This document shows positions 33,876-64,000 of a DNA stretch of 64,000 nt, piece after piece. The notes below the pieces were generated by a model, which saw only the letters and a program-made list of their open reading frames with translations, was not told the origin of the DNA and ran no database searches. Both the position numbers and the translations under genes were made by a program. Within the stretch, counting starts at the first letter, position 1, and every line of letters begins with the position of its first letter. The DNA is taken from positions 186,001-250,000 of the forward strand of contig CAXHJY010001477.1 of assembly GCA_964016885.1 (NCBI GenBank), written 5' to 3'. This stretch comes from Eledone cirrhosa (taxonomy: Eukaryota).

Positions 33876-33877
33876 AT

Positions 33878-38128: not shown

Positions 38129-38270
38129 TTAACCCTTTCACATTTCAACCGGCCATATACAGCCAGAATTCTTTCACTTCTTTCTGTTCAAACTGGCCAT
38201 AACTAGCCAGACATATTTATGTTAAGGTGTTGTTCTCAAAATAAATAATATCAAAATTTCATAGTTTCAA
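38129..38270. mobile_element. Possible left end of a TTAA-specific (piggyBac-like) MITE or DNA transposon that grades into the 72-bp satellite
   Basis: TTAA|CCCTTTCACATTTCAACCGGCCATATACAGCCAG start; no matching right end in the window. Confidence 0.45.
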
Positions 38271-38319
38271 TATTATGTGAGATAATTATGTGAGGTAAAG
38301 CCTTTACAATGAAAATACA
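38270..38319. repeat. 72-bp satellite, first partial unit
   Basis: ATATTATGTGAGATAATTATGTGAGGTAAAGCCTTTACAATGAAAATACA. Confidence 0.85.
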
Positions 38320-38929: not shown

Positions 38930-38984
38930 TAGAGTAATGTAAATGTTATGTGAGGTAAAGCCTTTACTGTGAAAATACAATAGT

Positions 38985-40530
38985 ATCATCATCATCATCA
39001 TCGTTTAACGTCCATCTTCCACGCTTGCATGGGTTTGGACAGGAGTTTTCCCACTTGAGGCAAGAGTGGTTGTCTTGCTTACATAGGACTGTCTGGCGGG
39101 TTTTCTACGGCTGGATGCCCTTCCTAACACCAACCACGTTTACAGTGTGGGGCTGGGAGGTTTTTACCGTGTTGCCTACACGGCCACATTACAGCGCGGA
39201 CTGTGTGTTTTTTTGTCATGACACCTACACGACCTCATTTGTTTCGGGCTGGATGTTGTGGTACCAACATAACTTTACATTGAAAGGGGTGGTGTGGATG
39301 GCGTGGGGGTAGTGGGACGGGGGTGTATTTTGTTAGAGGTGCCTACTGACTGTAGTAGGTTTCACTTTGTACTTAGGTAAGGCGGGTCTTCTGTATTACT
39401 GTGTAGCGCCAAAGATCTCGGTCCAGTGACATTGTTTTGGAGAGGTGTAAGTGTGTGAGGTCGGAATTTATCAAGTCGTCCCAGGTTTTTCTGGGTCTGC
39501 CTACTCCGTGGCTACCGTCTATTTTTATTGCCCTGCACTTTTTTATACAACTGTCGTCTTTCATGCGCACCACGTGACCATACCAACGTAGTCTTCTCTC
39601 GAATAAACAACATCTGATCCCTCTTATTCCTAATTTTTCCCTTAGTTCGTTTATGCTTTGCCATTCACATATATTACTATTACACATCCAGCGGAGCATG
39701 CAAGCTTTGTTCCTCTCTAGTCTGCATATATCCTCTGCACACAATGCCCAGGTCTCACTGCCATGTAACATTGCTGTTCGTATGCAGGCATCATACAGCC
39801 TGCCTTTCATTTTTAGAGAGACCCCTTTAGTGGCTAATAGTGGTATAAGCTCTCTGAACCTTTTCCATCCAGTTCTGACTCTAGCTACTGTACTTTCAGA
39901 GCACCCTCCACCACTGCTGATTTTGTCACCCAGGTAATGGAAGGTGTCTACTATTTCTGTAGAACCATCTGGGCAGTTGAAGGAAATATCAGCCAGTGGG
40001 TCCTTGCTACCTATTGCACCAGAGCAACGGCCACATATAAAATCTATATTCTTAGTTAGCTTACCTGTGATCCCACTACATCTTTTATGCACCCATACTT
40101 TGCATTTGGGACATAAAATGGAGTTTCTACCTACTCCTTTCCTACACACTGAGCATGGCCATTTCCCGGATGGGAGACCGGTGCCCTATTTTCCTTCCTA
40201 CAAACTAGAACTTTAGTCTTAGACAAGTTAACTTTAAGGCCTTTTGATTCTAGGCCATGCTTCCATGTTTCGAATTTCTTCACTAGTTCCACCATTGATT
40301 CAGCTATGAGCGTTAGATCATCTGCGTATAGGAGTTCCCATGGGCAACCGGTCTTGAACTCCACTGTTATAGCCTGAAGGGCAATAATAAATAGTAGGGG
40401 CTAAGAATGGAGCCCTGATGAACACCAACTTTTACGCTAAACTCTTCACTATATTCGTTGTTAATTCTAACCTTGCTGACTGTTTCTTTATACATGGCTT
40501 GTATAGCTCTCACAAGCCATTCATCAACAC
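38985..40530 (-). mobile_element. 5'-truncated RTE family B inserted in the satellite
   Basis: GVHQGS, LYADDLTL, Cys/His finger, RLRWYGHVVR; (CAT)n tail; satellite at 38930-38986 and 40531-40714. Confidence 0.95.
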
Positions 40531-40714
40531 AGAGTAATGTAAATGTTATGTGAGATATTATGTAAGGTAAAGCCTTTACTGTGAAAATACAATAGTATAT
40601 ATAGAGTAATGTAAATGTTATGTGAGATATTATGTGAGGTAAACCTTTACTGTGAAAATACAATAGTATATATAGAGTAATGTAAATGTTATGTGAGATA
40701 TTATGTGAAGTAAA
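40531..40714. repeat. 72-bp satellite, about 2.5 units
   Basis: Same unit as 50888-53326. Confidence 0.95.
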
Positions 40715-43700: not shown

Positions 43701-44634
43701 AACAAGTACCACCAATTTCTGGGAGGGCTCTGTAGAGACAGTAGACAGCTTCTGCTACCTAGGTGACCGAATTAGCAGCGGAGGTGGGTGTTCAGAAAGT
43801 ACAATAACTAGGGTAAGAACGGGATGGAAGAAGTTTAGGGAACTACTACCACTGCTAGCTGCAAAAGGCTTCTCCCTCAGAATGAAAGGCAGACTGTATG
43901 ATGCGTGTATCCGAACAGCGATGTTTCATGGTAGTGAGACCTGGGCGCTGAAGGTGGAAGACTTATGTAGATTAGAGAGAAACGAAGCCTGCATGCTCCG
44001 ATCGATGTGTAACAGTAATATACGTGAACGACAAAGACTAAATGAATTCAGAAAGAGACTGAGCATAAGAGGAATCAAATGCTGTGTGCAGGAGAGGCGG
44101 TTGCGCTGGTATGGACATGTGATGCGTATGAAGGATGACAGCTGCATAAAAAGGTGCAGAGCACTAGAAGTCGATGGAAACCGCGGAGTGGGGAGACCCA
44201 AGATGACCTGGGATGAGGTGATAAAAGCCGACCTTACCCAATTACACCTCTCAAAGGCAATGACACACGACCGTGACTTCTGGCGTTACGCAGTAATACA
44301 GAGTACCCAACCTCCCATGGGTACAAGCTGAAGCATATAGACAATATGCCCCCACACCCCCCACTGCAAGGTGGTCGTGGAGGTGCCACGGCAAAAAAGC
44401 ACCCAGCCCACACTGTAAAGTGGACGTGTAGGCGCCACGAAAAAGCACCCAGCACTCACTGTAAATGAGGTTGGTGTTAGGAAGGGCATCCAGTTGTAGA
44501 AATCAAGCCAAATCAGTTCCTGTATGAGCAAGGCATGGTCAACCGACCAGACACTGCCCACAACAGGACAACCCGTCTAACCCATGCTAGCGTGGAAGAA
44601 CGGACGTAAAACGGTGATGATGATGATGATGATG
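40715..44634 (+). mobile_element. Near full-length RTE LINE (family A, about 3.9 kb) inserted in the satellite
   Basis: 5' UTR, single APE-RT ORF, 3' UTR, (GAT)n tail; satellite GTAAA|...|AAAGCCTTTAC on either side. Confidence 0.96.
41215..44331 (+). pseudogene. RTE APE endonuclease plus reverse transcriptase ORF with PHD-like finger; one stop (42571) and two compensating frameshifts (about 43405 and 43520)
   Basis: GTINVGT, CVQETRW, SAYAPQ, GDFNGH, IDFIL, NYRGIKL, DLEKAFD, HQGSVLSP, YADD. Confidence 0.95.
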
Positions 44635-45237
44635 AAAGCCTTTACTGTGAAAATGCTATAGTATATATAGAGTAATGTAAATGTTATGTGAGGTATTATG
44701 TGAGGTAAAGCCTTTACTGTGAAAATACAATAGTATATATAGAGTAATGTAAATGTTATGTGAGGTATTATGTGAGGTAAAGCCTTTATTGTGACAATAC
44801 AATAGTATATATAGAGTAATGTAAATGTTATGTGAGGTATTATGTGAGGTAAAGCCTTTACTGTGAAAATACAATAGTATATATAGAGTAATGTAAATGT
44901 TATGTGAGGTATTATGTGAGGTAAAGCCTTTATTGTGACAATACAATAGTATATATAGAGTAATGTAAATGTTATGTGAGGTACTATGTGAGGTAAAGCC
45001 CTTACTGTGACAATACAATAGTATATATAGAGTAATGTAAATGTTATGTGAGGTATTATGTGAGGTAAAGCCTTTACTGTGAAAATACAATAGTATATAT
45101 AGAGTAATGTAAATGTTATGTGAGATATTATGTGAGGTAAAGCCTTTACTGTGAAAATACAATAGTATATATAGAGTAATGTAAATGTTATGTGAGGTAA
45201 AGCCTTTACTGTGACAATACAATAGTATATATAGAGT
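44635..45237. repeat. 72-bp satellite array 1 (about 8 units)
   Basis: Unit GTAATGTAAATGTTATGTGAGRTATTATGTGAGGTAAAGCCTTTACTGTGAMAATACAATAGTATATATAGA. Confidence 0.98.
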
Positions 45238-45474
45238 GGTTTCTTTATTTGCCACTAGGGCACAAAAGGTAGGGACAGATACAAGGGGGGAAGTTTACAT
45301 ATAATTAACGAGTACAAAAATATAACAATGAAATAACAACAACAAACGAAGTCCTCAATAGGGAGGGGGCATTAACATGGGTCGCACACACCCCGGAAAA
45401 AATGTGTAACCCTTCTCCTCAGGAGCACAAAGAGTAGGTGCTTCCCTCGTCTCCTCTTTTTCCTCTTCTTTCAC

Positions 45475-48400
45475 CTACAGGCTGATATAGAGAGAAGACC
45501 CATTCACTCTGGCCATTCTCCCTACTTTCACCCACCTTTCATAAAACTTGCTGGGGTAGAGCACCTCTCTCTCCATTCTGATCCTTCTTTTAAAATGGTA
45601 TTTGAAAAAGGGGACCAGTTGTTGGCCGGAGAGAAAGGTGTCTGACCTCAGCCCTTTCAGCCTCGTCCACCATACAACTTCTTTAGCCATGGCTACCACA
45701 CAGAGAAAAACCGCCTCTCCTTCGTTTTTGAAAGGGGGAGGCGGTTTGATCGTGACAATGGACTCGGTGGTCAACCGGATTGGTCCCACCCTCGACAGTA
45801 GTCGTTCCACATAGCCCCACAGGTCAGCAATGCCTGGGCAGTGTACGAATGCGTGCGCAACGGTTTCGTCATCATGCACGCATCTCGGACAGATCTTATT
45901 CAAAGGATCTCTACCCAGGCTCCCATGCCTGTGGAGCTTGTCTCGAACGGGTAGAGCCCCTCGGTAGCACTGCCAAGCCAGGGACTTTTGGAAGTTGTCC
46001 ATCGGTCCAGGGCCAAACGTCCTACCGAACAGACTGGCCAGTTCATCTTCCTCCATGCCTAGAGCTTCTCCGAGAGCATCGTCGCACCTGCTGCGTACCA
46101 ACCCTCTATAGAATGTCGACGTGGAGTCTCCACTGATTGCCGGGTCCGCTTTCCAGAGGGCCGTGAGCGCCTGGGCACATTCAATGTGCCAGTCGCCCAC
46201 TTTTCTCGGTCTTTGCTTGACCCAGGATTGCAGCTCGGTGAGCGAGACGAGTCTGGGAAAGGCTCGCCTCACAAACGGGGCCCACACCGGTTGACCGGTG
46301 AGGAATACCTGGAGGTGCCGTAGCCTTAATGCGTGTTTACGCATCTGTAGCCACGGCATCCCCAGCCCTCCTTTCGAAGGGTGTTGACAGCAGATGGATC
46401 TCCTCACTAAAGGGGTCCGCTTGTTCCAAAGAAATTGGAACAGCGCGCACTCCATTTTGGCGAGTCTTTTCACTGGGCAAGGCACGACGGTCAAGCGGTA
46501 GTAGATGACGGATGCTATATAAGTATTCGCCACCTCCGCTCGACCTTTCAGGGATAGTTTGCACTGGGCCCACTTCTGGGTGAGTGCAAACACCCTGGCC
46601 GTTACCTCGTTCCAGTTTTTCTCCACCTGGAGGTCTGGTCCGAACCAGACCCCAAGCAGCTTCACCGGGCCCTCCGTCCAGCGTCCGACGACGTCGTTGG
46701 AGGGCATCGGTTTGCCTCTCCATGTTCCGAGTTGCAAACCGACGGACTTGTCCCGGTTCAGGTTGGCTCCTGTAAACCTTTCATATTCCTCCAGTAAGGT
46801 GCCGATCTCACCGATTTGCGAGGTTTTCGACACCATTACTGTCACGTCATCGGCGTAGGCCGACGCCACTTTCTGCAATCCCGGTTCCAAAGGGATGCCC
46901 TGCAACCGCTCCAACTTCCGCAGTAGTGGCTCAAGAGCCAGCACATACAGTAGGGAGGAGAGAGGGCATCCCTGTCGGATGGATCGCATGATTTGGAACG
47001 GCTCCGAGAGGTGGCCGTTCACCTTGACCCTTGAGCAGACGTTGCTGCTGTGCATCGCAGCAATCCAACCCCTGAAAACGGGTCCGAAGCCTGCCGCCGC
47101 GAGCACCGCATCCAGGTAACGATGGTCAACCCTATCGAAAGCTTTAGATTGATCCAAGTTGATCAGGGCCCCACCAAAGCCGGGTTCATTCCCTACCCTC
47201 TCTATGATGTATCGCATAAGGTGGAGATTGTCGTGAATGGACCTGGACGGGATTGCGCATGTCTGCGCTTCTCCCACCAGGTTTCCAACGACAAGCGCCA
47301 ACCTCTTCGCTAACACCTTGGCCAAAATCTTTAACTCTGTATTTAGCAGAGTTATGGGCCTGAAGTTACTTATGTCATCCCCCTTGTTCTCATCCTTCCT
47401 CACCAGCGTAACTACGCCCTTGGTCACAGAACTGGGAATTCTCCCGTTCTGCTGCCAGTTGCAGTAGACCGCTTCGAGGATATCGGAGAACAAGTCCGGC
47501 ATCGCTACATATAGCTCGTATGGTAGACCATCGAGACCCGGGGATTTGCGTTTGCCGCATTGGCTCAGCGCCGCCCCTATCTCAGCAGCTGAAATCGTCC
47601 TTTCGCAGGACTTCGCCTCCGCGTCCGAGAGGCGCGGCAGACCGTCGAGGTATGGATTGAAATCCATAGTCTCACCCGGCGCGCCGCCCCTCTCGAACAG
47701 TCGTGCAAAGTGCCGCTGAAAGGCCGCACACATCTGCCCAGGTTCAAGGATCACACGCCCATCCTGGTCCTTCAAAGACCGAATCGTGGACTTGTTCCCA
47801 CTTTTTGCCTCTGTCACTCGGGCCCAGCTTACAGCTTTGGCTCCCTCATTACCCAGAGCACGTATTTTACTCCTGACAACGCAGCCTTCATGCTTCACCT
47901 CAAAGAACTGGTCTAAGGCCATTCTTGATGCCAGCACGCCGGCTACATTGCCACTCCTATTCGCCTCTTCTACTCTATCTACTAATTCCCTTTCCGTCTT
48001 GTTCCTATCCCTTACTAATTCCTGACTAAAACCTATCGATTCTATTCTAATTGCTCTCTTAAGAGAGCTCCACCACCTGTTGTTGACAATTGCCCCTGTC
48101 AAACTCTGCTTAACTAACGTGCTAATCCGTTTACTGTAAGCTTTGCTTCTCGGTAAGGACAAGTTCAGCTTCCAGTAACCGGGTCCCTGTCTATGGGTTC
48201 TATCAAGGTTGGCTATGCAGGTCACTAACTTGTGATCCGAATAGTCAACCATGAACATTTTTGGACAGCTAAATGTGTCCCTATCGTTCTCTCTAACTAG
48301 GACCCTATCTAGGTACGACCTAGATGTTCCACTGCGATTGGTCCACGTCCATAGTGGTACAGTCGGAAAATCTAGTCGATATCTATCGGCCAGGTCAAAT

Positions 48401-48912
48401 CGGCCGATTAACCTTTTGAGGCTTTTACACCCCCCTCTATTGGCACATGCCCCTACATAGTCCCAACGTGCATCCAGGATACCATTCCAGTCCCCCACTA
48501 AAAGCAAGGAGCGGGACGTTCCCAGAAAAGTTTCCAGACGTTGGAAGTATTCCGGCCGCGCTGCCCAAAAAGGGGCGTACACAGCTATTAGTCTAAGGGC
48601 TCCACTTTCACTACTGCCGACGTCTAAAACCACCAGTCGACCCTCCGGGTCCAGGTGCACCTTCTGTATGGCGAGGCCCAGGTGTTTTCGCAGCAGAACG
48701 ACAACTCCACCCCCACCCCCCGGTTGACAGAGAGATGCGAAGATCTCAAAGTCGTCGAAGAGGGGCGCCAGTTGGTGCTCGCTGCTGATCCTGGACTCGC
48801 AAATAGCCATTACATCCATTCTATGCGACCTGAGATCGTTTAAAAGTTTGCCTTGTTTCCAAGACAGTCCCAGGCCACGTACATTCAGACACCCAACTCT
48901 TATATCAGCCAT
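45475..48912 (-). CDS. Tx1-like ORF2 (1145 aa): APE endonuclease, reverse transcriptase, C-terminal zinc finger
   Basis: CLNVRGL, VYAP, GDWN, YLDRV, SDH, GPGYWKLN, KSPGLDG, NFRPITLLN, LDQSKAFDRVDH, RQGCPLS, YADD, GGLGMP, CPRC-x8-H-x4-C. Confidence 0.96.
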   Translation of the reverse strand: MADIRVGCLNVRGLGLSWKQGKLLNDLRSHRMDVMAICESRISSEHQLAPLFDDFEIFASLCQPGGGGGVVVLLRKHLGLAIQKVHLDPEGRLVVLDVGSSESGALRLIAVYAPFWAARPEYFQRLETFLGTSRSLLLVGDWNGILDARWDYVGACANRGGCKSLKRLIGRFDLADRYRLDFPTVPLWTWTNRSGTSRSYLDRVLVRENDRDTFSCPKMFMVDYSDHKLVTCIANLDRTHRQGPGYWKLNLSLPRSKAYSKRISTLVKQSLTGAIVNNRWWSSLKRAIRIESIGFSQELVRDRNKTERELVDRVEEANRSGNVAGVLASRMALDQFFEVKHEGCVVRSKIRALGNEGAKAVSWARVTEAKSGNKSTIRSLKDQDGRVILEPGQMCAAFQRHFARLFERGGAPGETMDFNPYLDGLPRLSDAEAKSCERTISAAEIGAALSQCGKRKSPGLDGLPYELYVAMPDLFSDILEAVYCNWQQNGRIPSSVTKGVVTLVRKDENKGDDISNFRPITLLNTELKILAKVLAKRLALVVGNLVGEAQTCAIPSRSIHDNLHLMRYIIERVGNEPGFGGALINLDQSKAFDRVDHRYLDAVLAAAGFGPVFRGWIAAMHSSNVCSRVKVNGHLSEPFQIMRSIRQGCPLSSLLYVLALEPLLRKLERLQGIPLEPGLQKVASAYADDVTVMVSKTSQIGEIGTLLEEYERFTGANLNRDKSVGLQLGTWRGKPMPSNDVVGRWTEGPVKLLGVWFGPDLQVEKNWNEVTARVFALTQKWAQCKLSLKGRAEVANTYIASVIYYRLTVVPCPVKRLAKMECALFQFLWNKRTPLVRRSICCQHPSKGGLGMPWLQMRKHALRLRHLQVFLTGQPVWAPFVRRAFPRLVSLTELQSWVKQRPRKVGDWHIECAQALTALWKADPAISGDSTSTFYRGLVRSRCDDALGEALGMEEDELASLFGRTFGPGPMDNFQKSLAWQCYRGALPVRDKLHRHGSLGRDPLNKICPRCVHDDETVAHAFVHCPGIADLWGYVERLLSRVGPIRLTTESIVTIKPPPPFKNEGEAVFLCVVAMAKEVVWWTRLKGLRSDTFLSGQQLVPFFKYHFKRRIRMEREVLYPSKFYERWVKVGRMARVNGSSLYISL

Positions 48913-48933
48913 GTTGGTTAAAAGAGGAAGGAC

Positions 48934-50676
48934 CTACCTGTTCGGCTCCTGAGGAGCAGGTTGCACAATATCCATGGGCGTATTGGAGGGGTTGTTTGGT
49001 GGGGTGTTGTTCTGTGGTGGAGTGGGGGTGTTTGGTGAGGTGTGGGTGGGGAAACGTTTCAAGAGGACGCGGTTATAGGGTCGAGTACATGTTTTCCCCA
49101 CGTCCTCAGGAAAGTTCTCTCTTAGTTTTGCATAGGTGTCCATTGGGAGTCTTATCATTTTTAAATGCGGTTTGTTGGCCGCGCTTGCAAAGAATTGTCC
49201 TTCAGTTTCCACCAAAGGGTCTTTGTGTATTGTTTTTACTAGTTCTTTGTTATTTGTGTTAATGTATGTATACTGTTTTATTTGTGTTGTGTTTGTTTGT
49301 TGTTCTTGTGTGTGCTTACGTTTTGTTGTATGTGTTATGTTTTGGGGTGGGGCGGATTTTGTTTGTTCTGTTTGTTTTGTTTTTGTTGGTGGTTGTGTGT
49401 TTGTTTCGTTTATGTTCGAGTGGTGCTTTCTTTTTTTCCTTTTTACAGGTTGGAAGGGTTCCCCCTCTTCGTCACTAGGTGCCGTTTCTGCTGGGTCCTC
49501 GTCCGTGCTGTCGGGTAGTGGTGTATTTTGGGGTTTTGTTGTATTTGTGTGTGTTTTGGGAGTTGTTTTGGGTGGGGCCGTGTCTTGTGTTATTTTTCCT
49601 TGTTGTTTTTGTTGTTGTTGTGGTGGTGGTGGTGGAGGTGGTGGTGGTGGTGGTGGTGGCGGTGGTGGTGTGTGGGGTGTAGGCAAAAGAGCCTTTTTTT
49701 TTGTCAATTGAGGACAAGCAGCCCTTAGATGACCCCTGCTTGAACAGTAGTAACATATGGGCCTCCTACCCTCGGCTGAAATATATATAAATGTTTCTCC
49801 ATCGAGGGACACCCTCTGTGGTATTCTAGCGATTCGTTCTGGTCTCATTTGGACCAGAACCTCCACGCTCAAACCGCCGAAAACGTCTGTGGTGACTTCT
49901 CCTACTGAGAGGATTCCGTCCTCGTCTTCTAAAAACCCTGTTAGTACCCAGGAAATGCATGCATTTGGCCGGATTCCGGAGACCCTTATCTTCTGCGTTC
50001 TTTTCCCTAAATATGTGGTGAAAAATGTATGTAGCTTGGAAACAATTGGTGCCACAGAGTATTTCCTGGCCGTCAATTGATCCTTCATTAGGACCGTTAT
50101 ATTCCCATAGAGTGGCCCTTTTTGTATGAACGATATATCACTCCACGCATTTTTTAGGACCAGCTCAATCTCTTTTTGGGATAATTGAGTTGGTTTCCTT
50201 GTTATGTTGGAAATTGTTCTGAAAGATATCGTTCTTAGTGTCGTGTCTCTTTTGATTTCTTGTGGGGAGGTGATTGTGAAGTCTCCTCCTTCTTTGAAAG
50301 TTACATACTGTTTCGCTTCCTTCATCTTTTCTCTCAGAGTTGTAATGTCCAGTTGCTTGCAGGTTTGTGTTTTCCGGACCGCCTGTGCAAAGGAGGTACC
50401 AGTAGTGGGTTCGCTTTGTTTGGTGTTATCGTTATTTTTTCCTTGGTTGGTGTTGTGACTATTGCTGTTATTGTCGTTGTTGTTTTTGTCTGCGTTTATG
50501 TGACTTTCTGGGTTTTCACCCATTTTTACAAATTTTTCTTTTAATTCCGTGTTCCATGTTTCTTTTGCAGAAGTCAGGAGGGAAGACTTAGAGCCTTGTG
50601 CTTCTAGCTTCTCTGTATCACCTTTCTTAGGGGGCGTGGCTTTCACGTTAGGATGAGATGTGAAAATTCCGTCCAT
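48934..50676 (-). CDS. Tx1-like ORF1 (580 aa from ATG 50676), gag-like nucleic-acid-binding protein
   Basis: Zinc knuckle CYYCSSRGHLRAAC, SFAQAV motif, poly-Pro/Gln linker, basic KRKKRK; ends 21 nt upstream of the ORF2 ATG. Confidence 0.9.
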   Translation of the reverse strand: MDGIFTSHPNVKATPPKKGDTEKLEAQGSKSSLLTSAKETWNTELKEKFVKMGENPESHINADKNNNDNNSNSHNTNQGKNNDNTKQSEPTTGTSFAQAVRKTQTCKQLDITTLREKMKEAKQYVTFKEGGDFTITSPQEIKRDTTLRTISFRTISNITRKPTQLSQKEIELVLKNAWSDISFIQKGPLYGNITVLMKDQLTARKYSVAPIVSKLHTFFTTYLGKRTQKIRVSGIRPNACISWVLTGFLEDEDGILSVGEVTTDVFGGLSVEVLVQMRPERIARIPQRVSLDGETFIYISAEGRRPICYYCSSRGHLRAACPQLTKKKALLPTPHTPPPPPPPPPPPPPPPPQQQQKQQGKITQDTAPPKTTPKTHTNTTKPQNTPLPDSTDEDPAETAPSDEEGEPFQPVKRKKRKHHSNINETNTQPPTKTKQTEQTKSAPPQNITHTTKRKHTQEQQTNTTQIKQYTYINTNNKELVKTIHKDPLVETEGQFFASAANKPHLKMIRLPMDTYAKLRENFPEDVGKTCTRPYNRVLLKRFPTHTSPNTPTPPQNNTPPNNPSNTPMDIVQPAPQEPNR

Positions 50677-50887
50677 TTCTATTAGTTTGCCGTAATAAAT
50701 TTTTAACTGGAAAATTCGCCCCAAAAAGGGGCGAAAATAAATAAACTCAAAGTTTGACGACCAAGGCAAGGGGTTAACGTATATTACAGTATAAAAAAAT
50801 TAATCAAAACTCACTTTTTGAGTAAGTAAATCCGACTCGGTAGCCGAGCTTGTTCACACACGTCAACACACGTCTCTCGTATACGAG

Positions 50888-53326
50888 ATGTTATGTGAGA
50901 TATTATGTGAGGTAAAGCCTTTACTGTGAAAATACAATAGTATATATAGAGTAATGTAAATGTTATGTGAGGTATTATGTGAGGTAAAGCCTTTACTGTG
51001 AAAATACAATAGTATATATAGAGTAATGTAAATGTTATGTGAGGTATTATGTGAGGTAAAGCCTTTACTGTGACAATACAATAGTATATATAGAGTAATG
51101 TAAATGTTATGTGAGATATTATGTGAGGTAAAGCCTTTACTGTGAAAATACAATAGTATATATAGAGTAATGTAAATGTTATGTGAGATATTATGTGAGG
51201 TAAAGCCTTTACTGTGAAAATACAATAGTATATATAGAGTAATGTAAATGTTATGTGAGGTATTATGTGAGGTAAAGCCTTTACTGTGAAAATACAATAG
51301 TATATATAGAGTAATGTAAATGTTATGTGAGGTATTATGTGAGGTAAAGCCTTTACTGTGACAATACAATAGTATATATAGAGTAATGTAAATGTTATGT
51401 GAGATATTATGTGAGGTAAAGCCTTTACTGTGAAAATACAATAGTATATATAGAGTAATGTAAATGTTATGTGAGATATTATGTGAGGTAAAGCCTTTAC
51501 TGTGAAAATACAATAGTATATATAGAGTAATGTAAATGTTATGTGAGGTATTATGTGAGGTAAAGCCTTTACTGTGAAAATACAATAGTATATATAGAGT
51601 AATGTAAATGTTATGTGAGGTATTATGTGAGGTAAAGCCTTTACTGTGACAATACAATAGTATATATAGAGTAATGTAAATGTTATGTGAGATATTATGT
51701 GAGGTAAAGCCTTTACTGTGACAATACAATAGTATATATAGAGTAATGTAAATGTTATGTGAGGTATTATGTGAGGTAAAGCCTTTACTGTGAAAATACA
51801 ATAGTATATATAGAGTAATGTAAATGTTATGTGAGATATTATGTGAGGTAAAGCCTTTACTGTGACAATACAATAGTATATATAGAGTAATGTAAATGTT
51901 ATGTGAGGTATTATGTGAGGTAAAGCCTTTACTGTGAAAATACAATAGTATATATAGAGTAATGTAAATGTTATGTGAGGTATTATGTGAGGTAAAGCCT
52001 TTACTGTGAAAATACAATAGTATATACAGAGTAATGTAAATGTTATGAGATATTATGTGAGGTAAAGACTTTACTGTGAAAATACAATAGTATATATAGA
52101 GTAATGTAAATGTTATGTGAGATATTATGTGAGGTAAAGACTTTACTGTGAAAATACAATAGTATATATAGAGTAATGTAAATGTTATGTGAGGTACTAT
52201 GTGAGGTAAAGCCTTTACTGTGTAAATACAATAGTATATAAAGAGTAATGTAAATGTTATGTGAGATATTATGTGAGGTAAAGCCTTTACTGTTAAAATA
52301 CAATAGTATATATAGAGTAATGTAAATGTTATGTTGGATATTATGTGAGGTAAAGCCTTTACTGTGAAAATACAATAGTATATATAGAGTAATGTAAATG
52401 TTATGTGAGATATTATGTGATGTAAAGCCTTTACTGTGACAATACAATAGTATATATAGAGTAATGTAAATGTTATGTGAGATATTATGTGAGGTAAAGA
52501 CATTACTGTGACAATACAATAGTATATATAGAGTAATGTAAATGTTATGTGAGATATTATGTGAGGTAAATCCTTTACTGTGAAAATACAATAGTATATA
52601 TAGAGTAATGTAAATGTTATGTGAGATATTATGTGAGGTAAAGCCTTTACTGTGAAAATACAATAGTATATATAGAGTAATGTAAATGTTATGTGAGATA
52701 TTATGTGAGGTAAAGCCTTTACTGTGAAAATACAATAGTATATATAGAGTAATGTAAATGTTATGTGAGATATTATGTGAGGTAAAGCCTTTACTGTGAA
52801 AATACAATAGTATATATAGAGTAATGTAAATGTTATGTGAGGTATTATGTGAGGTAAAGACTTTACTGTGAAAATACAATAGTATATATAGAGTAATGTA
52901 AATGTTATGTGAGGTATTATGTGAGGTAAAGCCTTTACTGTGACAATACAATAGTATATATAGAGTAATGTAAATGTTATGTGAGATATTATGTGAGGTA
53001 AAGCCTTTACTGTGACAATACAATAGTATATATAGAGTAATGTAAATGTTATGTGAGGTATTATGTGAGGTAAAGCCTTTACTGTGAAAATACAATAGTA
53101 TATATAGAGTAATGTAAATGTTATGTGAGATATTATGTGAGGTAAAGCCTTTACTGTGACAATACAATAGTATATATAGAGTAATGTAAATGTTATGTGA
53201 GGTATTATGTGAGGTAAAGCCTTTACTGTGAAAATACAATAGTATATATAGAGTAATGTAAATGTTATGTGAGGTATTATGTGAGGTAAAGCCTTTACTG
53301 TGAAAATACAATAGTATATATAGAGT
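50888..53326. repeat. 72-bp satellite array 2 (about 34 units)
   Basis: Continuous 72-bp period (24-aa period in the spurious ORFs). Confidence 0.99.
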
Positions 53327-53563
53327 GGTTTCTTTATTTGCCACTAGGGCACAAAAGGTAGGGACAGATACAAGGGGGGAAGTTTACATATAATTAACGA
53401 GTACAAAAATATAACAATGAAATAACAACAACAAACGAAGTCCTCAATAGGGAGGGGGCATTAACATGGGTCGCACACACCCCGGAAAAAATGTGTAACC
53501 CTTCTCCTCAGGAGCACAAAGAGTAGGTGCTTCCCTCGTCTCCGCTTTTTCCTCTTCTTTCAC

Positions 53564-56500
53564 CTACAGGCTGATATAGAGAGAAGACCCATTCACTCTG
53601 GCCATTCTCCCTACTTTCACCCACCTTTCATAAAACTTGCTGGGGTAGAGCACCTCTCTCTCCATTCTGATCCTTCTTTTAAAATGGTATTTGAAAAAGG
53701 GGACCAGTTGTTGGCCGGAGAGAAAGGTGTCTGACCTCAGCCCTTTCAGCCTCGTCCACCATACAACTTCTTTAGCCATGGCTACCACACAGAGAAAAAC
53801 CGCCTCTCCTTCGTTTTTGAAAGGGGGAGGCGGTTTGATCGTGACAATGGACTCGGTGGTCAACCGGATTGGTCCCACCCTCGACAGTAGTCGTTCCACA
53901 TAGCCCCACAGGTCAGCAATGCCTGGGCAGTGTACGAATGCGTGCGCAACGGTTTCGTCATCATGCACGCATCTCGGACAGATCTTATTCAAAGGATCTC
54001 TACCCAGGCTCCCATGTCTGTGGAGCTTGTCTCGAACGGGTAGAGCCCCTCGATAGCACTGCCAAGCCAGGGACTTTTGGAAGTTGTCCATCGGTCCAGG
54101 GCCAAACGTCCTACCGAACAGACTGGCCAGTTCATCTTCCTCCATGCCTAGAGCTTCTCCGAGAGCATCGTCGCACCTGCTGCGTACCAACCCTCTATAG
54201 AATGTCGAGGTGGAATCTCCACTGATTGCCGGGTCCGCTTTCCAGAGGGCCGTGAGCGCCTGGGCACATTCAATGTGCCAGTCGCCCACTTTTCTCGGTC
54301 TTTGCTTGACCCAGGATTGCAGCTCGGTGAGCGAGACGAGTCTGGGAAAGGCTCGCCTCACAAACGGGGCCCACACCGGTTGACCGGTGAGGAATACCTG
54401 GAGGTGCCGTAGCCTTAATGCGTGTTTACGCATCTGTAGCCACGGCATCCCCAGCCCTCCTTTCGAAGGGTGTTAACAGCAGATGGATCTCCTCACCAAA
54501 GGGGTCCGCTTGTTCCAAAGAAATTGGAACAGCGCGCACTCCATTTTGGCGAGTCTTTTCACTGGGCAAGGCACGACGGTCAAGCGGTAGTAGATGACGG
54601 ATGCTATATAAGTATTCGCCACCTCCGCTCGACCTTTCAGGGATAGTTTGCACTGGGCCCACTTCTGGGTGAGTGCAAACACCCTGGCCGTTACCTCGTT
54701 CCAGTTTTTCTCCACCTGGAGGTCTGGTCCGAACCAGACCCCAAGCAGCTTCACCGGGCCCTCCGTCCAGCGTCCGACGACGTCGTTGGAGGGCATCGGT
54801 TTGCCTCTCCATGTTCCGAGTTGCAAACCGACGGACTTGTCCCGGTTCAGCTTGGCTCCTGTAAACCTTTCATATTCCTCCAGTAAGGTGCCGATCTCAC
54901 CGATTTGCGAGGTTTTCGACACCATTACTGTCACGTCATCGGCGTAGGCCGACGCCGCTTTCTGCAATCCCGGTTCCAAAGGGATGCCCTGCAACCGCTC
55001 CAACTTCCGCAGTAGTGGCTCAAGAGCCAGCACATACAGTAGGGAGGAGAGAGGGCATCCCTGTCGGATGGATCGCATGATTTGGAACGGCTCCGAGAGG
55101 TGGCCGTTCACCTTGACCCTTGAGCAGACGTTGCTGCTGTGCATCGCAGCAATCCAACCCCTGAAAACGGGTCCGAAGCCTGCCGCCGCGAGCACCGCAT
55201 CCAGGTAACGATGGTCAACCCTATCGAAAGCTTTAGATTGATCCAAGTTGATCAGGGCCCCACCAAAGCCGGGTTCATTCCCTACCCTCTCTATGATGTA
55301 TCGCATAAGGTGGAGATTGTCGTGAATGGACCTGGACGGGATTGCGCATGTCTGCGCTTCTCCCACCAGGTTTCCAACGACAAGCGCCAACCTCTTCGCT
55401 AACACCTTGGCCAAAATCTTTAACTCTGTATTTAGCAGAGTTATGGGCCTGAAGTTACTTATGTCATCCCCCTTGTTCTCATCCTTCCTCACCAGCGTAA
55501 CTACGCCCTTGGTCACAGAACTGGGAATTCTCCCGTTCTGCTGCCAGTTGCAGTAGACCGCTTCGAGGATATCGGAGAACAAGTCCGGCATCGCTACATA
55601 TAGCTCGTATGGTAGACCATCGAGACCCGGGGATTTGCGTTTGCCGCATTGGCTCAGCGCCGCCCCTATCTCAGCAGCTGAAATCGTCCTTTCGCAGGAC
55701 TTCGACTCCGCGTCCGAGAGGCGCGGCAGACCGTCGAGGTATGGATTGAAATCCATAGTCTCACCCGGCGCGCCGCCCCTCTCGAACAGTCGTGCAAAGT
55801 GCCGCTGAAAGGCCGCACACATCTGCCCAGGTTCAAGGATCACACGCCCATCCTGGTCCTTCAAAGACCGAATCGTGGACTTGTTCCCACTTTTTGCCTC
55901 TATCACTCGGGCCCAGCTTACAGCTTTGGCTCCCTCATTACCCAGAGCACGTATTTTACTCCTGACAACGCAGCCTTCATGCTTCACCTCAAAGAACTGG
56001 TCTAAGGCCATTCTTGATGCCAGCACGCCGGCTACATTGCCACTCCTAATCGCCTCTTCTACTCTATCTACTAATTCCCTTTCCGTCTTGTTCCTATCCC
56101 TTGCTAATTCCTGACTAAAACCTATCGATTCTATTCTAATTGCTCTCTTAAGAGAGCTCCACCACCTGTTGTTGACAATTGCCCCTGTCAAATTCTGCTT
56201 AACTAACGTGCTAATCCGTTTACTGTAAGCTTTGCTTCTCGGTAAGGACAAGTTCAGCTTCCAGTAACCGGGTCCCTGTCTATGGGTTCTATCAAGGTTG
56301 GCTATGCAGGTCACTAACTTGTGATCCGAATAGTCAACCATGAACATTTTTGGACAGCTAAATGTGTCCCTATCGTTCTCTCTAACTAGGACCCTATCTA
56401 GGTACGACCTAGATGTTCCACTGCGATTGGTCCACGTCCATAGTGGTACAGTCGGAAAATCTAGTCGATATCTATCGGCCAGGTCAAATCGGCCGATTAA

Positions 56501-57001
56501 CCTTTTGAGGCTTTTACACCCCCCTCTATTGGCACATGCCCCTACATAGTCCCAACGTGCATCCAGGATACCATTCCAGTCCCCCACTAAAAGCAAGGAG
56601 CGGGACGTTCCCAGAAAAGTTTCCAGACGTTGGAAGTATTCCGGCCGCGCTGCCCAAAAAGGGGCGTACACAGCTATTAGTCTAAGGGCTCCACTTTCAC
56701 TACTGCCGACGTCTAAAACCACCAGTCGACCCTCCGGGTCCAGGTGCACCTTCTGTATGGCGAGGCCCAGGTGTTTTCGCAGCAGAACGACAACTCCACC
56801 CCCACCCCCCGGTTGACAGAGAGATGCGAAGATCTCAAAGTCGTCGAAGAGGGGCGCCAGTTGGTGCTCGCTGCTGATCCTGGACTCGCAAATAGCCATT
56901 ACATCCATTCTATGTGACCTGAGATCGTTTAAAAGTTTGCCTTGTTTCCAAGACAGTCCCAGGCCACGTACATTCAGAAACCCAACTCTTATATCAGCCA
57001 T
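53564..57001 (-). pseudogene. Copy 2 ORF2 with premature stop (CAA>TAA at 54473-54475)
   Basis: The 842-aa and 294-aa ORFs are in the same frame and collinear with copy 1 ORF2. Confidence 0.93.
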
Positions 57002-57022
57002 GTTGGTTAAAAGAGGAAGGAC

Positions 57023-58764
57023 CTACCTGTTCGGCTCCTGAGGAGCAGGTTGCACAATATCCATGGGCGTATTGGAGGGGTTGTTTGGTGGGGTGTTGTT
57101 CTGTGGTGGAGTGGGGGTGTTTGGTGAGGTGTGGGTGGGGAAACGTTTCAAGAGGACGCGGTTATAGGGTCGAGTACATGTTTTCCCCACGTCCTCAGGA
57201 AAGTTCTCTCTTAGTTTTGCATAGGTGTCCATTGGGAGTCTTATCATTTTTAAATGCGGTTTGTTGGCCGCGCTTGCAAAGAATTGCCCTTCAGTTTCCA
57301 CCAAAGGGTCTTTGTGTATTGTTTTTACTAGTTCTTTGTTATTTGTGTTAATGTATGTATACTGTTTTATTTGTGTTGTGTTTGTTTGTTGTTCTTGTGT
57401 GTGCTTACGTTTTGTTGTATGTGTTATGTTTTGGGTGGGGCGGATTTTGTTTGTTCTGTTTGTTTTGTTTTTGTTGGTGGTTGTGTGTTTGTTTCGTTTA
57501 TGTTCGAGTGGTGCTTTCTTTTTTTCCTTTTTACAGGTTGGAAGGGTTCCCCCTCTTCGTCACTAGGTGCCGTTTCCGCTGGGTCCTCGTCCGTGCTGTC
57601 GGGTAGTGGTGTATTTTGGGGTTTTGTTGTATTTGTGTGTGTTTTGGGAGTTGTTTTGGGTGGGGCCGTGTCTTGTGTTATTTTTCCCTGTTGTTTTTGT
57701 TGTTGTTGTGGTGGTGGTGGTGGAGGTGGTGGTGGTGGTGGTGGTGGCGGTGGTGGTGTGTGGGGTGTAGGCAAAAGAGCCTTTTTTTTTGTCAATTGAG
57801 GACAAGCAGCCCTTAGATGACCCCTGCTTGAACAGTAGTAACATATGGGCCTCCTACCCTCGGCTGAAATATATATAAATGTTTCTCCATCGAGGGACAC
57901 CCTCTGTGGTATTCTAGCGATTCGTTCTGGTCTCATTTGGACCAGAACCTCCACGCTCAAACCGCCGAAAACGTCTGTGGTGACTTCTCCTACTGAGAGG
58001 ATTCCGTCCTCGTCTTCTAAAAATCCTCTTAGTACCCAGGAAATGCATGCATTTGGCCGGATTCCGGAGACCCTTATCTTCTGCGTTCTTTTCCCTAAAT
58101 ATGTGGGGAAAAATGTATATATCTTGGAAACAATTGGTGCCACAGAGTATTTCCTGGCCGTCAATTGATCCTTCATTAGGACCGTTATATTCCCATAGAG
58201 TGGCCCTTTTTGTATGAACGATATATCACTCCACACATTTTTTAGGACCAGCTCAATCTCTTTTTGGGATAATTGAGTTGGTTTCCTTGTTATGTTGGAA
58301 ATTGTTCTGAAAGATATCGTTCTTAGCGTCGTGTCTCTTTTGATTTCTTGTGGGGAGGTGATTGTGAAGTCTCCTCCTTCTTTGAAAGTTACATACTGTT
58401 TCGCTTCCTTCATCTTTTCTCTCAGAGTTGTAATGTCCAGTTGCTTGCAGGTTTGTGTTTTCCGGACCGCCTGTGCAAAGGAGGTACCAGTAGTGGGTTC
58501 ACTTTGTTTGGTGTTATCGTTATTTTTTCCTTGGTTGGTGTTGTGACTATTGCTGTTATTGTCGTTGATGTTTTTGTCTGCGTTTATGTGACTTTCTGGG
58601 TTTTCACCCATTTCTACAAATTTTTCTTTTAATTCCGTGTTCCATGTTTCTTTTGCAGAAGTGAGGAGGGAAGACTTAGAGCCTTGTGCTTCTAGCTTCT
58701 CTGTATCACCTTTCTTAGGGGGCGTGGCTTTCACGTTAGGATGAGATGTGAAAATTCCGTCCAT
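57023..58764 (-). pseudogene. Copy 2 ORF1 with 1-nt frameshift near 57433
   Basis: A GGGG run in copy 1 is GGG here; the ORF splits into 57424-58857 and 57023-57304. Confidence 0.9.
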
Positions 58765-58975
58765 TTCTATTAGTTTGCCGTAATAAATTTTTAACTGGAA
58801 AATTCGCCCCAAAAAGGGGCGAAAATAAATAAACTCAAAGTTTGACGACCAAGGCAAGGGGTTAACGTATATTACAGTATAAAAAAATTAATCAAAACTC
58901 ACTTTTTGAGTAAGTAAATCCGACTCGGTAGCCGAGCTTGTTCACACACGTCAACACACGTCTCTCGTATACGAG

Positions 58976-59906
58976 ATGTTATGTGAGATATTATGTGAGG
59001 TAAAGACTTTACTGTGAAAATACAATAGTATATATAGAGTAATGTAAATGTTATGTGAGATATTATGTGAGGTAAAGACTTTACTGTTAAAATACAATAG
59101 TATATATAGAGTAATGTAAATGTTATGTTGGATATTATGTGAGGTAAAGCCTTTACTGTGAAAATACAATAGTATATATAGAGTAATGTAAATGTTATGT
59201 GAGATGTTATGTGATGTAAAGCCTTTACTGTGACAATACAATAGTATATATAGAGTAATGTAAATGTTATGTGAGATATTATGTGAGGTAAAGACATTAC
59301 TGTGACAATACAATAGTATATATAGAGTAATGTAAATGTTATGTGAGGTATTATGTGAGGTAAAGCCTTTATTGTGACAATACAATAGTATATATAGAGT
59401 AATGTAAATGTTATGTGAGGTACTATGTGAGGTAAAGCCCTTACTGTGACAATACAATAGTATATATAGAGTAATGTAAATGTTATGTGAGGTATTATGT
59501 GAGGTAAAGCCTTTACTGTGAAAATACAATAGTATATATAGAGTAATGTAAATGTTATGTGAGATATTATGTGAGGTAAAGCCTTTACTGTGAAAATACA
59601 ATAGTATATATAGAGTAATGTAAATGTTATGTGAGGTATTATGTGAGGTAAAGCCTTTACTGTGAAAATACAATAGTATATATAGAGTAATGTAAATGTT
59701 ATGTGAGGTATTATGTGAGGTAAAGCCTTTACTGTGACAATACAATAGTATATATAGAGTAATGTAAATGTTATGTGAGATATTATGTGAGGTAAAGCCT
59801 TTACTGTGAAAATACAATAGTATATATAGAATAATGTAGATGTTTTGTGAGATATTATGTGAGGTAAAGCTTTTACTGTGAAAATACAATAGTATATATA
59901 GCGTAA
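58976..59906. repeat. 72-bp satellite array 3 (about 13 units)
   Basis: Same unit as arrays 1 and 2. Confidence 0.98.
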
Positions 59907-62900
59907 TTTCTTTATTTGCCACCAGGGCACAAAAGGTAGGGACAGATACAAGGGGGGAAGTTTACATATAATTAACGAGTACAAAAATATAAAAGTAAAA
60001 TAACAACAACAAACGAAGTCCTCAATAGGGAGGGCATTAACATGGGTCGCACACACCCCGGAAAATATGTGCAACCCTTCTCCTCAGGGCACAAAGAGTA
60101 GGTGCTTCCCCCGTCTCCTCTTTTTCCTCTTCTTTCACCTACAGGCTGATATAGAGAGAAGACCCATTCACTCTGGCCATTCTCCCTACTTTCACCCACC
60201 TTTCATAAAACTTGCTGGGGTAGAGCACCTCTCTCTCCATTCTGATCCTTCTTTTAAAATGGTATTTGAAAAAGGGGACCAGTTGTTGGCCGGAGAGAAA
60301 GGTGTCTGACCTCAGCCCTTTCAGCCTCGTCCACCATACAACTTCTTTAGCCATGGCTACCACACAGAGAAAAACCGCCTCTCTTTCGTTTTTGAAAGGG
60401 GGAGGCGGTTTGATCGTGACAATGGACTCGGTGGTCAACCGGATTGGTCCCACCCTCAACAGCAGTCGTTCCACATAGCCCCACAGGTCAGCAATGCCTG
60501 GGCAGTGTACGAATGCGTGTGCAACGGTTTTGTCGTCATGCATGCATCTCGGACAGATCTTAATCAAAGGATCCCTACCCAGGCTCCCATGCCTGTGGAG
60601 CTTGTCTCGAACGGGTAGAGCCCCTGGGTAGCACTGCCAAGCCAGGGACTTTTGTAAGTTGTCCATCGGTCCAGGGCCAAACGTCCTACCGAACAGACTG
60701 GTCAGTTCACCTTCCTCCATGCCTAGAACTTCTGCGAGAGCATCATCGCACCTGCTGCGTACCAACCCTCTATAGAAGTGGTGTCTCCACTGATTGCCGG
60801 GTCCGCTTTCCAGAGGGACGTGAGCGCCTGGGCACATTCAATGTGCCAGTCGCCATCTTTTCTCGGTCTTTGCTTGACCCAGGATTGCAGCTCTGTGAGC
60901 GAGACGAGTCTGGGAAAGGCTCGCCTCACAAACGGGGCCCACACCGGTTGACCAGTGAGGAATACCTGGAGGTGCCGTAGCCTTAAAGCGTGTTTACGCA
61001 TCTGTAGCCACGGCATCCCAGCCCTCCTTTCGAAGGGTGTTGACAGCAGATGGATCTCCTCACCAAAGGGGTCCGCTTGTTCCAAAGAAATTGGAACAGC
61101 GCGCACTCCATTTTGGCGAGTCTTTTCATTGGGCAAGCCACGACGGTCAAGCGGTAGCAGATGACGGATGCTATATAAGTATTCGCCACCTCCGCTCGAC
61201 CTTTCAGGGATAGTTTGCACTGGGCCCACTTCTGGGCGAGTGCAAACACCCTGGCCGTTACCTCGTTCCAGTTTTTCTCCACCTGGAGGTCTGGTCTGAA
61301 CCAGACCCTCCGTCCAGCGTCCGACGACGTCGTTGGAGGGCATCGGTTTGCCTCTCCATGTTCCGAGTTGCAAACCGACGGACTTGTCCCGGTTCAGCTT
61401 GGCTCCTGTAAACCTTTCATATTCCTCCAGTAAGGTGCCGATCTCACCGAATTGCGAGGTTCTCGACACCATTACTGTCACGTCATCGGCGTAGGCCGAC
61501 GCCGCTTTCTGCAATCCCGGTTCCAAAGATGCCCTGCAACCGCTCCAACTTCCACAGTAGTGGCTCAAGAGCCAGCACATACAGAAGGGAGGAGAGAGGG
61601 CATCCTTGTCGGATGGATCACATGATTTGGAACGGCTCCGAGAGGTGGCCGTTCACCTTGACCCTTGAGCAGACCTTGAGCAGACAGTGCATCGCAGCAA
61701 TCCAACACCTGAAAACGGGTCCAAAGCCTGCCGCCGCGAGCACCGCATCCAGGTAACGATGGTCAACCCTATCGAAAGCTTTAGATTGATCCAAGTTGAT
61801 CAGGGCCCCACCAAAGCCGGGTTCATTCCCTACCCTCTCTATGATGTATCGCATAAGATGGAGATTGTCGTGAATGGACCTGGACGGGATTGCGCATGTC
61901 TGCGCTTCTCCCAACAGGTTTCCAACGACAAGTGCCAACCTCTTCGCTAACACCTTGGCCAAAATCTTTAACTCTGCATTTAGCAGAGTTATGGGCCTGA
62001 AGTTACCTATGTCATCCCCCTTGTTCTCGTCCTTCCTCACCAGTGTAACTACGCCCTTGGCTACAGAACTGGGAATTCTCCTGTTCTGCTGCCAGTTGCA
62101 GTAGACCGCTTTGAGGATATCGGAGAACAAGTCCGGCATCGCTACATATAGCTCGTATGGTAGACCATCGAGACCCAGGGATTTGCATTTGCCGCATTGG
62201 CTCAGCGCCGCCCCTATCTCAGCAGCTGAAATCGTCCTTTCGCAGGACTTCGCCTCCGCGTCCGAGAGGCGCGGCAGACCGTCGAGGTATGGATTGAAAT
62301 CCATAGTCTCACCCGGCTCGCCCCCCCTCTCGAACAGTCGTGCAAAGTGCCGCTGAAAGGCCGCACACATCTGCCCAGGTTCAAGGATCACACGCCCATC
62401 CTGGTCCTTCAAAAACCGAATCGTGGACTTGTTCCCACTTTTTGCCTGTCACTCGGGCCCAGCTCACAGCTTTGGCTCCCTCATTACCCAGAGCACGTAT
62501 TTTACTCCTGACAACGCAGCCTTCATGCTTCACCTCAAAGAACTGGTCTAAGGCCATTCTTGATGCCAGCACGCTGGCTACATTGCCACTCCTAATCGCC
62601 TCTTCTACTCTATCTACTAATTGCCTTTCCATCTTGTTCCTATCCCTTGCTAATTCCTGACTAAAACCTATCGATTCTATTCTAATTGCTCTCTTAAGAG
62701 AGCTCCACCACCTGTTGTTGACAATTGCCCCTGTCAAACTCTGCTTAACTAACGTGCTAATCCGTTTACTGTAAGCTTTGCTTGTCGGTAAGGACAAGTT
62801 CAGCTTCCAGTAACCGGGTCCCTGTCTATGGGTTCTATCAAAGTTGGTTATGCAGGTCACTAACTTGTGATCCGAATAGTCAACCATGAACATTTTTGGA

Positions 62901-64000
62901 CAGCTAAATGTGTCCCTATCCTTCTCTCTAACTAGGACCCTATCTAGGTATGACCTAGATGTTCTGCTGAGATTGGTCCACGTCCATAGTGTTACAGTCG
63001 GAAAATCTAGTCGATATCTATCGGCCAGGTCAAATCGGCCGATTAACCTTTTGAGGCTTTTACACCCACCTCTATTGGCACATGCCCCTACATAGTCCCA
63101 ACGTGCATCTAGGATACCATTCCAGTCCTCCACTAAAAGCAAGGAGCGGGACGTTCCCAGAAAAGTTTCCAGACGTTGGAAGTATTCCGGCCGCGCTGCC
63201 CAAAAAGGGGCATACACAGCTATTAGTCTAAGGGCTCCACTTTCACTACTGCCGACGTCTAAAACCACCAGTCGACCCTCCGGGTCCAGGTGCACCTTCT
63301 GTATAGCGAGGCCCAGGTGTTTTCGCAGCAGAACGACAACTCCACCCCCACCCCCGGTTGACAGAGATGCGAAGATCTCAAAGTCGTCGAAGAGCGGCGC
63401 CAGTTGGTGCTCGCTGCTGATCCTGGACTCGCAAATAGCCATTACATCCATTCTATGCGACCTGAGATCGTTTAAAAGTTTGCCTTGTTTCCAAGACAGT
63501 CCCAGGCCGCGTACATTCAGACACCCAACTCTTATATCAGCCATGTTGGTTAAAAGAGGAAGGACCTACCTGTTCGGCTCCTGAGGAGCAGGTTGCACAA
63601 TATCCATGGGCGTATTGGAGGGGTTGTTTGGTGGGGTGTTGTTCTGTGGTGGAGTGGGGGTGTTTGGTGAGGTGTGGGTGGGGAAACGTTTCAAGAGGAC
63701 GCGGTTATAGGGTCGAGTACATGTTTTCCCCACGTCCTCAGGAAAGTTCTCTCTTAGTTTTGCATAGGTGTCCATTGGGAGTCTTATCATTTTTAAATGC
63801 GGTTTGTTGGCCGCGCTTGCAAAGAATTGCCCTTCAGTTTCCACCGAAGGGTCTTTGTGTATTGTTTTTACTAGTTCTTTGTTATTTGTGTTAATGTATG
63901 TATACTGTTTTATTTGTGTTGTGTTTGTTTGTTGTTCTTGTGTGTGCTTACGTTTTGTTGTATGTGTTATGTTTTGGGGTGGGGCGGATTTTGTTTGTTC
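59907..64000 (-). mobile_element. Tx1-clade element copy 3, more diverged, several frameshifts and deletions; 5' part lies beyond the window
   Basis: ORF2 (60139-63544) is broken into several ORFs; ORF1 C-terminus runs from the window end to 63566. Confidence 0.93.

Follow-up and report, generated by a model that had tools for sequence, protein, structure and literature searches.

We analyzed a stretch of 64,000 nt from Eledone cirrhosa (assembly GCA_964016885.1, contig CAXHJY010001477.1, positions 186,001 to 250,000 of the forward strand), which is referred to below as the window. Here, three minus-strand retrotransposons without long terminal repeats (non-LTR) and with two open reading frames (ORFs) break into a 72-bp satellite, all at a single phase to within 2–3 nt (Table 1). 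The alternation of same-orientation elements with satellite blocks, noted in the initial annotation of this DNA, was confirmed, with a period of 72, a common minus-strand orientation and lengths of 5650 and 5649 bp for the two complete copies. Tandem Repeats Finder, from which the satellite blocks were taken, called them at 44635–45199(–45237), 50888–53326 and 58976–59907 with 7.8, 33.9 and 12.9 copies and 95–97% matches. Block 3 is a mosaic of variant runs, which both of the preceding blocks contain as well; the 60-bp variant that ends block 1 recurs at 38936–38986. The three copies of this two-ORF retrotransposon family, which likely belongs to the Tx1 clade, thus occupy a single satellite phase, and we consider it likely that they reached it through at least two, and probably three, separate targeted insertions.

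Both ORFs of copy 1 were found to be intact, as previously stated. ORF2 has the features of the L1 group (L1 and Tx1), namely an N-terminal apurinic/apyrimidinic endonuclease-type (APE-type) endonuclease, a reverse transcriptase (RT) and a C-terminal Cys/His motif. The endonuclease motifs are LNVRG, ICESR, VYAP, GDWNG, YLDR and SDH, the RT motif YADD is at residue 686, the C-terminal CCHC motif is at residues 1008–1025, and the Pfam families identified were PF03372, PF00078 and PF13966. The Pfam scan of ORF1 gave no family, hence no Transposase_22, and its nearest Atlas clusters were zf-CCHC (score 0.92). As a lead only, ORF1 may also include an RRM-like region, given that RRM_1 is found on 10% of one Atlas cluster and that the RNA-binding domains of ZCCHC3 scored 0.90 with 161/256 shared features. 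The 5' untranslated region (UTR) had no match in an Rfam scan. For the minus strand of 50677–50960, made up of the 5' UTR and a single satellite unit upstream of it, the predicted folding is better than that of its shuffles (z = −3.3), and in the predicted fold the first 40 nt of the element pair with satellite bases. None of the three copies has a poly(A) tail. In copy 2, ORF2 is interrupted by one stop and ORF1 by one frameshift.

Table 1. Features of the satellite array and its insertions (positions in the window; a dash or plus gives the strand)
Feature	Position	Strand	Remarks
Copy 1	45238..50887	-	Full length, 5650 bp, including the non-satellite GG (45238–45239)
Copy 1 3' UTR	45240..45474	-	235 nt; stops 4 nt past AATAAA (45244–45249, minus strand)
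Copy 1 ORF2	45475..48912	-	Open, 1145 aa; Pfam Exo_endo_phos, RVT_1, zf-RVT
Copy 1 ORF1	48934..50676	-	Open, 580 aa; single CCHC knuckle (residue 308)
Copy 1 5' UTR	50677..50887	-	211 nt; rich in hairpins
Copy 2	53327..58975	-	Full length, 5649 bp; 99.5% to copy 1
Copy 3	59907..64000	-	Older and decayed, 96.9%; starts at 59905/59907 and runs past the window end
Satellite block 1	44635..45237		3' flank of copy 1; last unit a 60-bp variant
Satellite block 2	50888..53326		34 units
Satellite block 3	58976..59906		13 units; the last is the most diverged
Element-free tract	51601..52534		Collinear with the units on either side of copy 2 (empty paralogue of the copy 2 site)
Satellite block 0	40531..40714		2.6 units
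Two further satellite fragments	38269..38986		38269–38319 and 38931–38986, with RTE-like pieces at other phases between them
RTE-like long interspersed nuclear element (LINE)	40715..44634	+	Within the 72-bp satellite at another phase, AAA on either side; internal control

At the 3' junctions of copies 1 and 2, the satellite is followed by GG and then by the element. The 3' junction that had been proposed as common to all three copies stands for copies 1 and 2 only. The AA of copy 3 (59905–59906), which had been contrasted with this GG, is a continuation of the satellite, so that the junction lies 2–3 nt deeper into the unit; the greater divergence ascribed to this copy was borne out. At the 5' junctions of copies 1 and 2, the satellite restarts at the identical letter, as the initial annotation held, AATGTAA is lost, and no target-site duplication was found at the junctions of either copy. 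The 5' side of copy 3 is beyond the window, and the 7-nt loss is thus seen in two of the three copies. A perfect 14-bp palindrome spans both visible 5' junctions (50875–50888 in copy 1 and 58963–58976 in copy 2). For an additional insertion that is already inside the satellite, the chance of matching strand and phase within 2 nt is about 5/144, or 3.5%. Satellite flanks at one phase were found for all three copies in the 64-kb window, that is, at one locus. An Rfam scan of 44600–51100 (E ≤ 1) gave no match, and hence no sign of a U2 small nuclear RNA (snRNA), another RNA gene or a ribozyme as the target at copy 1.

The ORF2 sequences differ in how they have decayed. Between copy 3 and the residues common to copies 1 and 2 there are 48 amino-acid differences, of which 29 could be polarized with 65–70% outgroups and 19 could not. 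Twenty-seven of the 29 are derived in copy 3 and two fall on the stem of copies 1 and 2 (binomial p = 1.6e-6); once the four private derived changes of copy 1 are added, the ratio becomes 27 to 6 (p = 3e-4). Copies 1 and 3 are separated by seven frameshifting indels in ORF2, and the five that are uncompensated, together with one stop, are all on copy 3 (0.5^5 = 0.03). The remaining two, which are 13 bp apart and mutually compensating, were excluded as unpolarized, distant relatives being one residue shorter than copy 1 there; one complex, net in-frame change was excluded likewise. Sequencing error was ruled out as the origin of the copy 3 decay by the spectrum of the changes, in which transitions account for 54/83 and CpG transitions for 20/83, while CpG makes up 10% of the letters. 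Because the decay is one-sided, the lineage of copies 1 and 2 appears to have been under selection for function after copy 3 had inserted. A retrotransposon lineage that is kept functional is one that went on transposing, and this lineage would thus have continued to transpose and to reach the same strand and phase. These comparisons support the view that more than one retrotransposition event was targeted to the same satellite phase, and the asymmetric decay combined with the differing junction makes at least two separate insertion events likely.

Copies 1 and 2 differ by 30 substitutions and one indel in 5650 bp, and 13 of 29 differences are synonymous, compared to 8.4 expected (P = 0.045), which is a weak excess. 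Their flanks resemble each other no more than random units do: 12 differences were counted over six left units and 16 over six right units, compared to 13.6 for random units, and the dissimilarity begins with the first unit on either side. Further analyses revealed that 11 of the 12 units around copy 2 align in order to the element-free tract at 51601–52534, the alignment passing over two units of the tract. For the six units left of copy 2, the match to this tract has a single difference (5 in the next best match; shuffle P = 0.0012), while the units left of copy 1 match instead a tract in block 3. It should be noted that seven of the 30 substitutions cluster in 300 bp of ORF1 (49936–50239 vs. 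58024–58327), five of them non-synonymous; this cluster is possibly a conversion tract.

The satellite has also received other elements. In the regions 38269–40714 and 40715–44634, at least three RTE-like insertions interrupt it, at breaks before unit positions 34–36 (with AAA on both sides), after position 63 and after position 56. We take the LINE at 40715–44634 to be of the RTE type from its (GAT)n tail and layout. The 5' sides of two minus-strand RTE-like insertions both resume at unit position 68. The array is a sink for LINEs, yet a single phase is kept only by the Tx1-like family.

Several lines of evidence place this family likely in the Tx1 clade, as far as sequence comparison goes. 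The best solved relative of ORF2 is human L1 ORF2p (residues 4–857, 182 bits, E 1e-52), and the nearest named protein, from Argonauta hians, is 68% identical over the RT region. We retrieved 45 metagenome loci by alignment to ORF2 and scanned 20 loci with Rfam (18 of the 45 plus L083 and L084). In two of them, an A-rich tail is followed by the 3' part of U2 snRNA (L007:5815–5977 and L004:4675–4885), which is the element-U2 arrangement described for Keno of the Tx1 clade (PMC4494074, PMC4640811). The window ORF2 scored 463 and 386 bits against these Keno-type L007 and L004 elements, compared to 182 bits against human L1; four candidate L1 anchor proteins scored 209–326 bits to human L1, so none of them was labelled L1. 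ORF1 follows the type I pattern (a CCHC knuckle and not Transposase_22), which is the pattern given for Tx1-clade ORF1 in the relevant section of PMC5203782. The assignment to Tx1 made in the initial annotation is thus favored by the pairwise scores and the ORF1 type, whereas the RT tree (55 rows, LG+G4, 361 columns, with no named Tx1 reference among the rows) gave no support at its deep nodes, and L007 and L004 did not form one clade in it.

Further relatives were found in a scan of prokaryote genomes, in which 39 of 41 loci are on 16 contigs of a single GTDB record filed as a bacterial metagenome-assembled genome, CAXXMW01 (G001; L046–L082, L085, L086). The flanks on these contigs are microsatellite-rich and animal-like, and the contigs are likely database contamination. 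The CAXXMW01 relatives have 40–44% ORF2 identity and form the sister clade to the window family with support of 100/100 in the RT tree. They are full-length and 5'-truncated elements of the L1/Tx1 type in head-to-tail arrays with a spacing of 6.4–6.9 kb, in which neighbors may carry different ORF1s and no satellite was found between copies. In one subfamily, all 22 junctions examined (17 loci) have the same short sequence directly after AATAAA, without poly(A); 20 of these junctions run into a full 5' end and two into 5'-truncated copies. Unrelated DNA comes after a subfamily-specific sequence at three array ends; besides the junction sequence just described, those of two other subfamilies terminate arrays in this way. 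The junction sequence, 15–20 nt long and particular to each subfamily, is probably a duplicated target. Only chance-level matches to it were found in Rfam, and no tRNA was found in five array-end regions. The CAXXMW01 lineage thus appears to be site-specific, its pattern being that of repeated site-specific insertion, and a site-specific sister lineage makes targeting by the window family more likely beforehand. The subfamilies, each with its own junction sequence, provide a natural series for mapping specificity. The 72-bp satellite and the element ends had no match in any of the 91 retrieved loci, and none of 98 candidate viral contigs was confirmed to carry a relative.

Part of the stretch is contained in 9 of 13 public sequencing runs (5 studies), and four runs, X1 to X4, were examined. 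The satellite is present in all four, and empty-site joints are listed for three. Contigs of X1 and X2 cross the junctions with 1–2 differences, carrying 22, 30 and 30 satellite letters; these are below the 31-letter bridging rule and were not counted. These contigs end exactly at the first flank difference of copies 1 and 2 (45215 and 50918), and one X2 contig ends at the element 3' end (45240). Such ends fit several flank or junction types, but also orthologues of copies 1 and 2; X1 and X2 are from one study, may include the source DNA and are not independent support. Over 45197–50930, contig depth in X1–X4, which is no measure of copy number, is far higher over ORF2 than over ORF1 and the 5' UTR. 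Many of the contigs over ORF2 show 10–15% divergence. Abundant sister families thus appear to have ORF2, and not ORF1, in common with the window family.

Several observations weigh against three separate targeted insertions. The copies seen are three, all at a single locus; no 5'-truncated copy joined to satellite was found among the matches listed for X1–X4; the synonymous share in copy 3 (27/75, compared to 21.7 expected) is not significantly raised (P = 0.09); and the RT tree leaves its deep nodes open, with no supported node joining the window clade to the Keno-type rows. In addition, two idiosyncratic junction scars, the GG and the palindrome, are identical at copies 1 and 2, as a DNA-level copy would give, and rare unit variant runs are common to several blocks, which indicates that recombination occurred across elements. 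These scars and shared runs, together with the low divergence of copies 1 and 2, are what would be expected if a targeted family had inserted only twice, as copy 3 and then as one element that was copied at the DNA level, by unequal exchange or gene conversion across short stretches of satellite homology, yielding copies 1 and 2. Against this, the flanks of the two copies are no closer than random units on either side from the first unit on, both flanks of copy 2 together match one element-free tract, and there is the weak synonymous excess between the copies. Given that the empty paralogue could also stem from precise loss of an element between its flanking units, we favor separate insertion of copies 1 and 2 only modestly, and the two-event explanation is a serious possibility that we rate somewhat below even. 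Decay asymmetry and satellite unit variants alone can separate repeated insertion from array amplification.

The TA-rich tract may also be a general insertion hot spot, because two of the three RTE-like insertions lie about 5–16 nt from the site of the three copies. If the endonuclease merely tended to favor T^A steps in TA-rich sequence, the satellite would be a general sink, with most copies of the family elsewhere, which would agree with the clustering of RTE-like insertions near the (TA)n tract and with the abundance of related families suggested by the depth near the element 3' end and over ORF2. We regard this as unlikely, since all three copies share strand and phase within 2–3 nt, compared to the scattered RTE-like 3' junctions (after 56, after 63 and before 34–36), and since the sister lineage is sharply site-specific. 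The initial annotation had offered one insertion amplified by tandem duplication as its alternative. A single untargeted insertion duplicated into all three copies would account for one strand, one phase and one locus, and recombination among the blocks is evident. Plain duplication would have both branches decay alike, in a symmetric and neutral manner, whereas amino-acid changes split 27 to 2 (or 6) and uncompensated frameshifts 5 to 0, and the junction letters differ. Even if an active copy elsewhere had later renewed copies 1 and 2 by conversion, that conversion would have to be near-complete and be accompanied by a change of two bases at the junction, and we consider this explanation of all three copies very improbable; as an account of copies 1 and 2 alone, duplication keeps the weight given above. 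Targeted insertion in more than one event, as suggested by the decay and junction of copy 3 and by the site-specific sister, is the part of the earlier proposal that is supported, while its novelty is reduced by the satellite targets already listed for Tx1.

For the targeted insertions that we prefer, a mechanism can be proposed by analogy with established target-primed reverse transcription. The ORF2 endonuclease would nick the plus strand at or beside the T^A step in ...TATAGAGT^AATG (GAGT^AATG). The element RNA would be reverse transcribed from the 3' end at this nick, and the joining of the second strand would delete a few target bases without duplication. Target specificity resides mainly in the endonuclease according to PMC4494074 and PMC1919474, and we predict an endonuclease specificity for the 72-bp unit. 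More speculatively, the element RNA may not be polyadenylated at its end and may read on into flanking satellite; this satellite-bearing RNA could anneal to the nicked target and so pass on to new copies the junction scars of the donor (GG on the 3' side, the palindrome on the 5' side), so that copies 1 and 2 would share both scars though they lie in different units. Later unequal exchange among satellite units would have reshuffled the blocks. Comparable effects are reported in sections of earlier work: added downstream 28S sequence raises the efficiency of R2Ol (PMC6795142), and a target-like 3' sequence improves the accuracy of SART1Bm, for which R1Bm is also cited (PMC7265360). A broader and tentative suggestion, which we think rather doubtful, is that the window family and its array-forming sister represent an undescribed, poly(A)-less branch of Tx1 with fast target switching and target sequence on both RNA ends. 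If so, junction scars would be inherited, the element would steer itself back into its satellite of origin, and it would co-evolve with a young, lineage-specific satellite and not with a conserved RNA gene.

The window family resembles the target-specific Tx1 families (Tx1L in Tx1D, Keno in U2, Kibi/Koshi in microsatellites and Tx1-Mar) in its two ORFs, its APE, RT and C-terminal zinc motif, its ORF1 CCHC knuckle and its fixed position in a multicopy sequence. Unlike them, its target is an AT-rich 72-bp satellite that is truncated instead of duplicated. Insertion of Tx1L into Tx1D makes a target duplication. In contrast to Tx1L of Xenopus, the window family is not in Tx1D but is flanked by the 72-bp tandem unit with 7 nt lost; in contrast to Keno, it is not in U2, and the Keno-type L007 and L004 have an A-tail, which the window family is without, and only about 30% ORF2 identity to it. 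The CAXXMW01 sister shares the CCHC ORF1, the end just after AATAAA without poly(A) and a fixed junction sequence, and differs in its head-to-tail arrays, its junction sequence of 15–20 nt and the lack of satellite between copies. R1Bm, SART1 and TRAS1 of the R1 clade and R2Ol are likewise guided by their endonucleases into tandem repeats, with annealing of RNA to the target aiding priming, as described in parts of PMC1919474, PMC7265360 and PMC6795142, but they belong to other clades, and their targets are rDNA or telomeric repeats; R2 ORFs match the window ORF2 over the RT only (58–83 bits).

Satellites ("Sat") are named among Tx1 targets in the legend to Fig. 3 of Kojima 2015 (PMC4494074). 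The same source describes many Tx1 families as target-specific and applies this term where a single sequence type makes up more than 20% of the flanks across the genome, and a telomere-specific Tx1 family in anole is cited in a passage of PMC10088271. The 2026 annotation of Octopus vulgaris gives 13 recently active L1-Tx1 families with 421 insertions (PMC13282606, Table 1), and the words "satellite" and "target" do not occur in its main text. These families are likely from the same broad group and host lineage as the window family, which may be present in the O. vulgaris library without a note on its target. No published account of the window family or its target was found in the literature searched, that is, outside Repbase and subscription journals. 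Satellite targeting itself is not new in kind, while the family is likely undescribed. As a site-specific LINE that was recently active, has open ORFs and inserts at a defined target of 72 bp, it offers a substrate for studying how APE endonucleases gain targets; such LINEs also attract interest as tools for inserting genes. Its location in a fast-evolving satellite would imply recent retargeting.

In addition, the full-length Tx1-type element L083, seen in one copy, is joined by its short A-tail to about nt 35 of a U1 snRNA gene and has a complete U1 gene upstream (9961–10137, 3036–3199), and a U1 gene lies downstream at L012:9202–9356. As only Dada DNA transposons are listed as U1-targeting in the available part of a 2015 account (PMC4640811), this U1-inserted LINE may merit attention. 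Elsewhere in the window, an AG-rich satellite of 15 kb (period 26–28, about 560 copies) occupies 5–15209, and the long ORFs there are repeat artefacts. Other homogeneous minisatellites are at 23190–23424 (period 35), 32799–33392 (63), 33503–33876 (43) and 34076–35655 (20). A minus-strand ORF of 222 aa at 25346–26014, to which Pfam assigned no family, presumably resembles the C-terminal part of an LTR-retrotransposon integrase.

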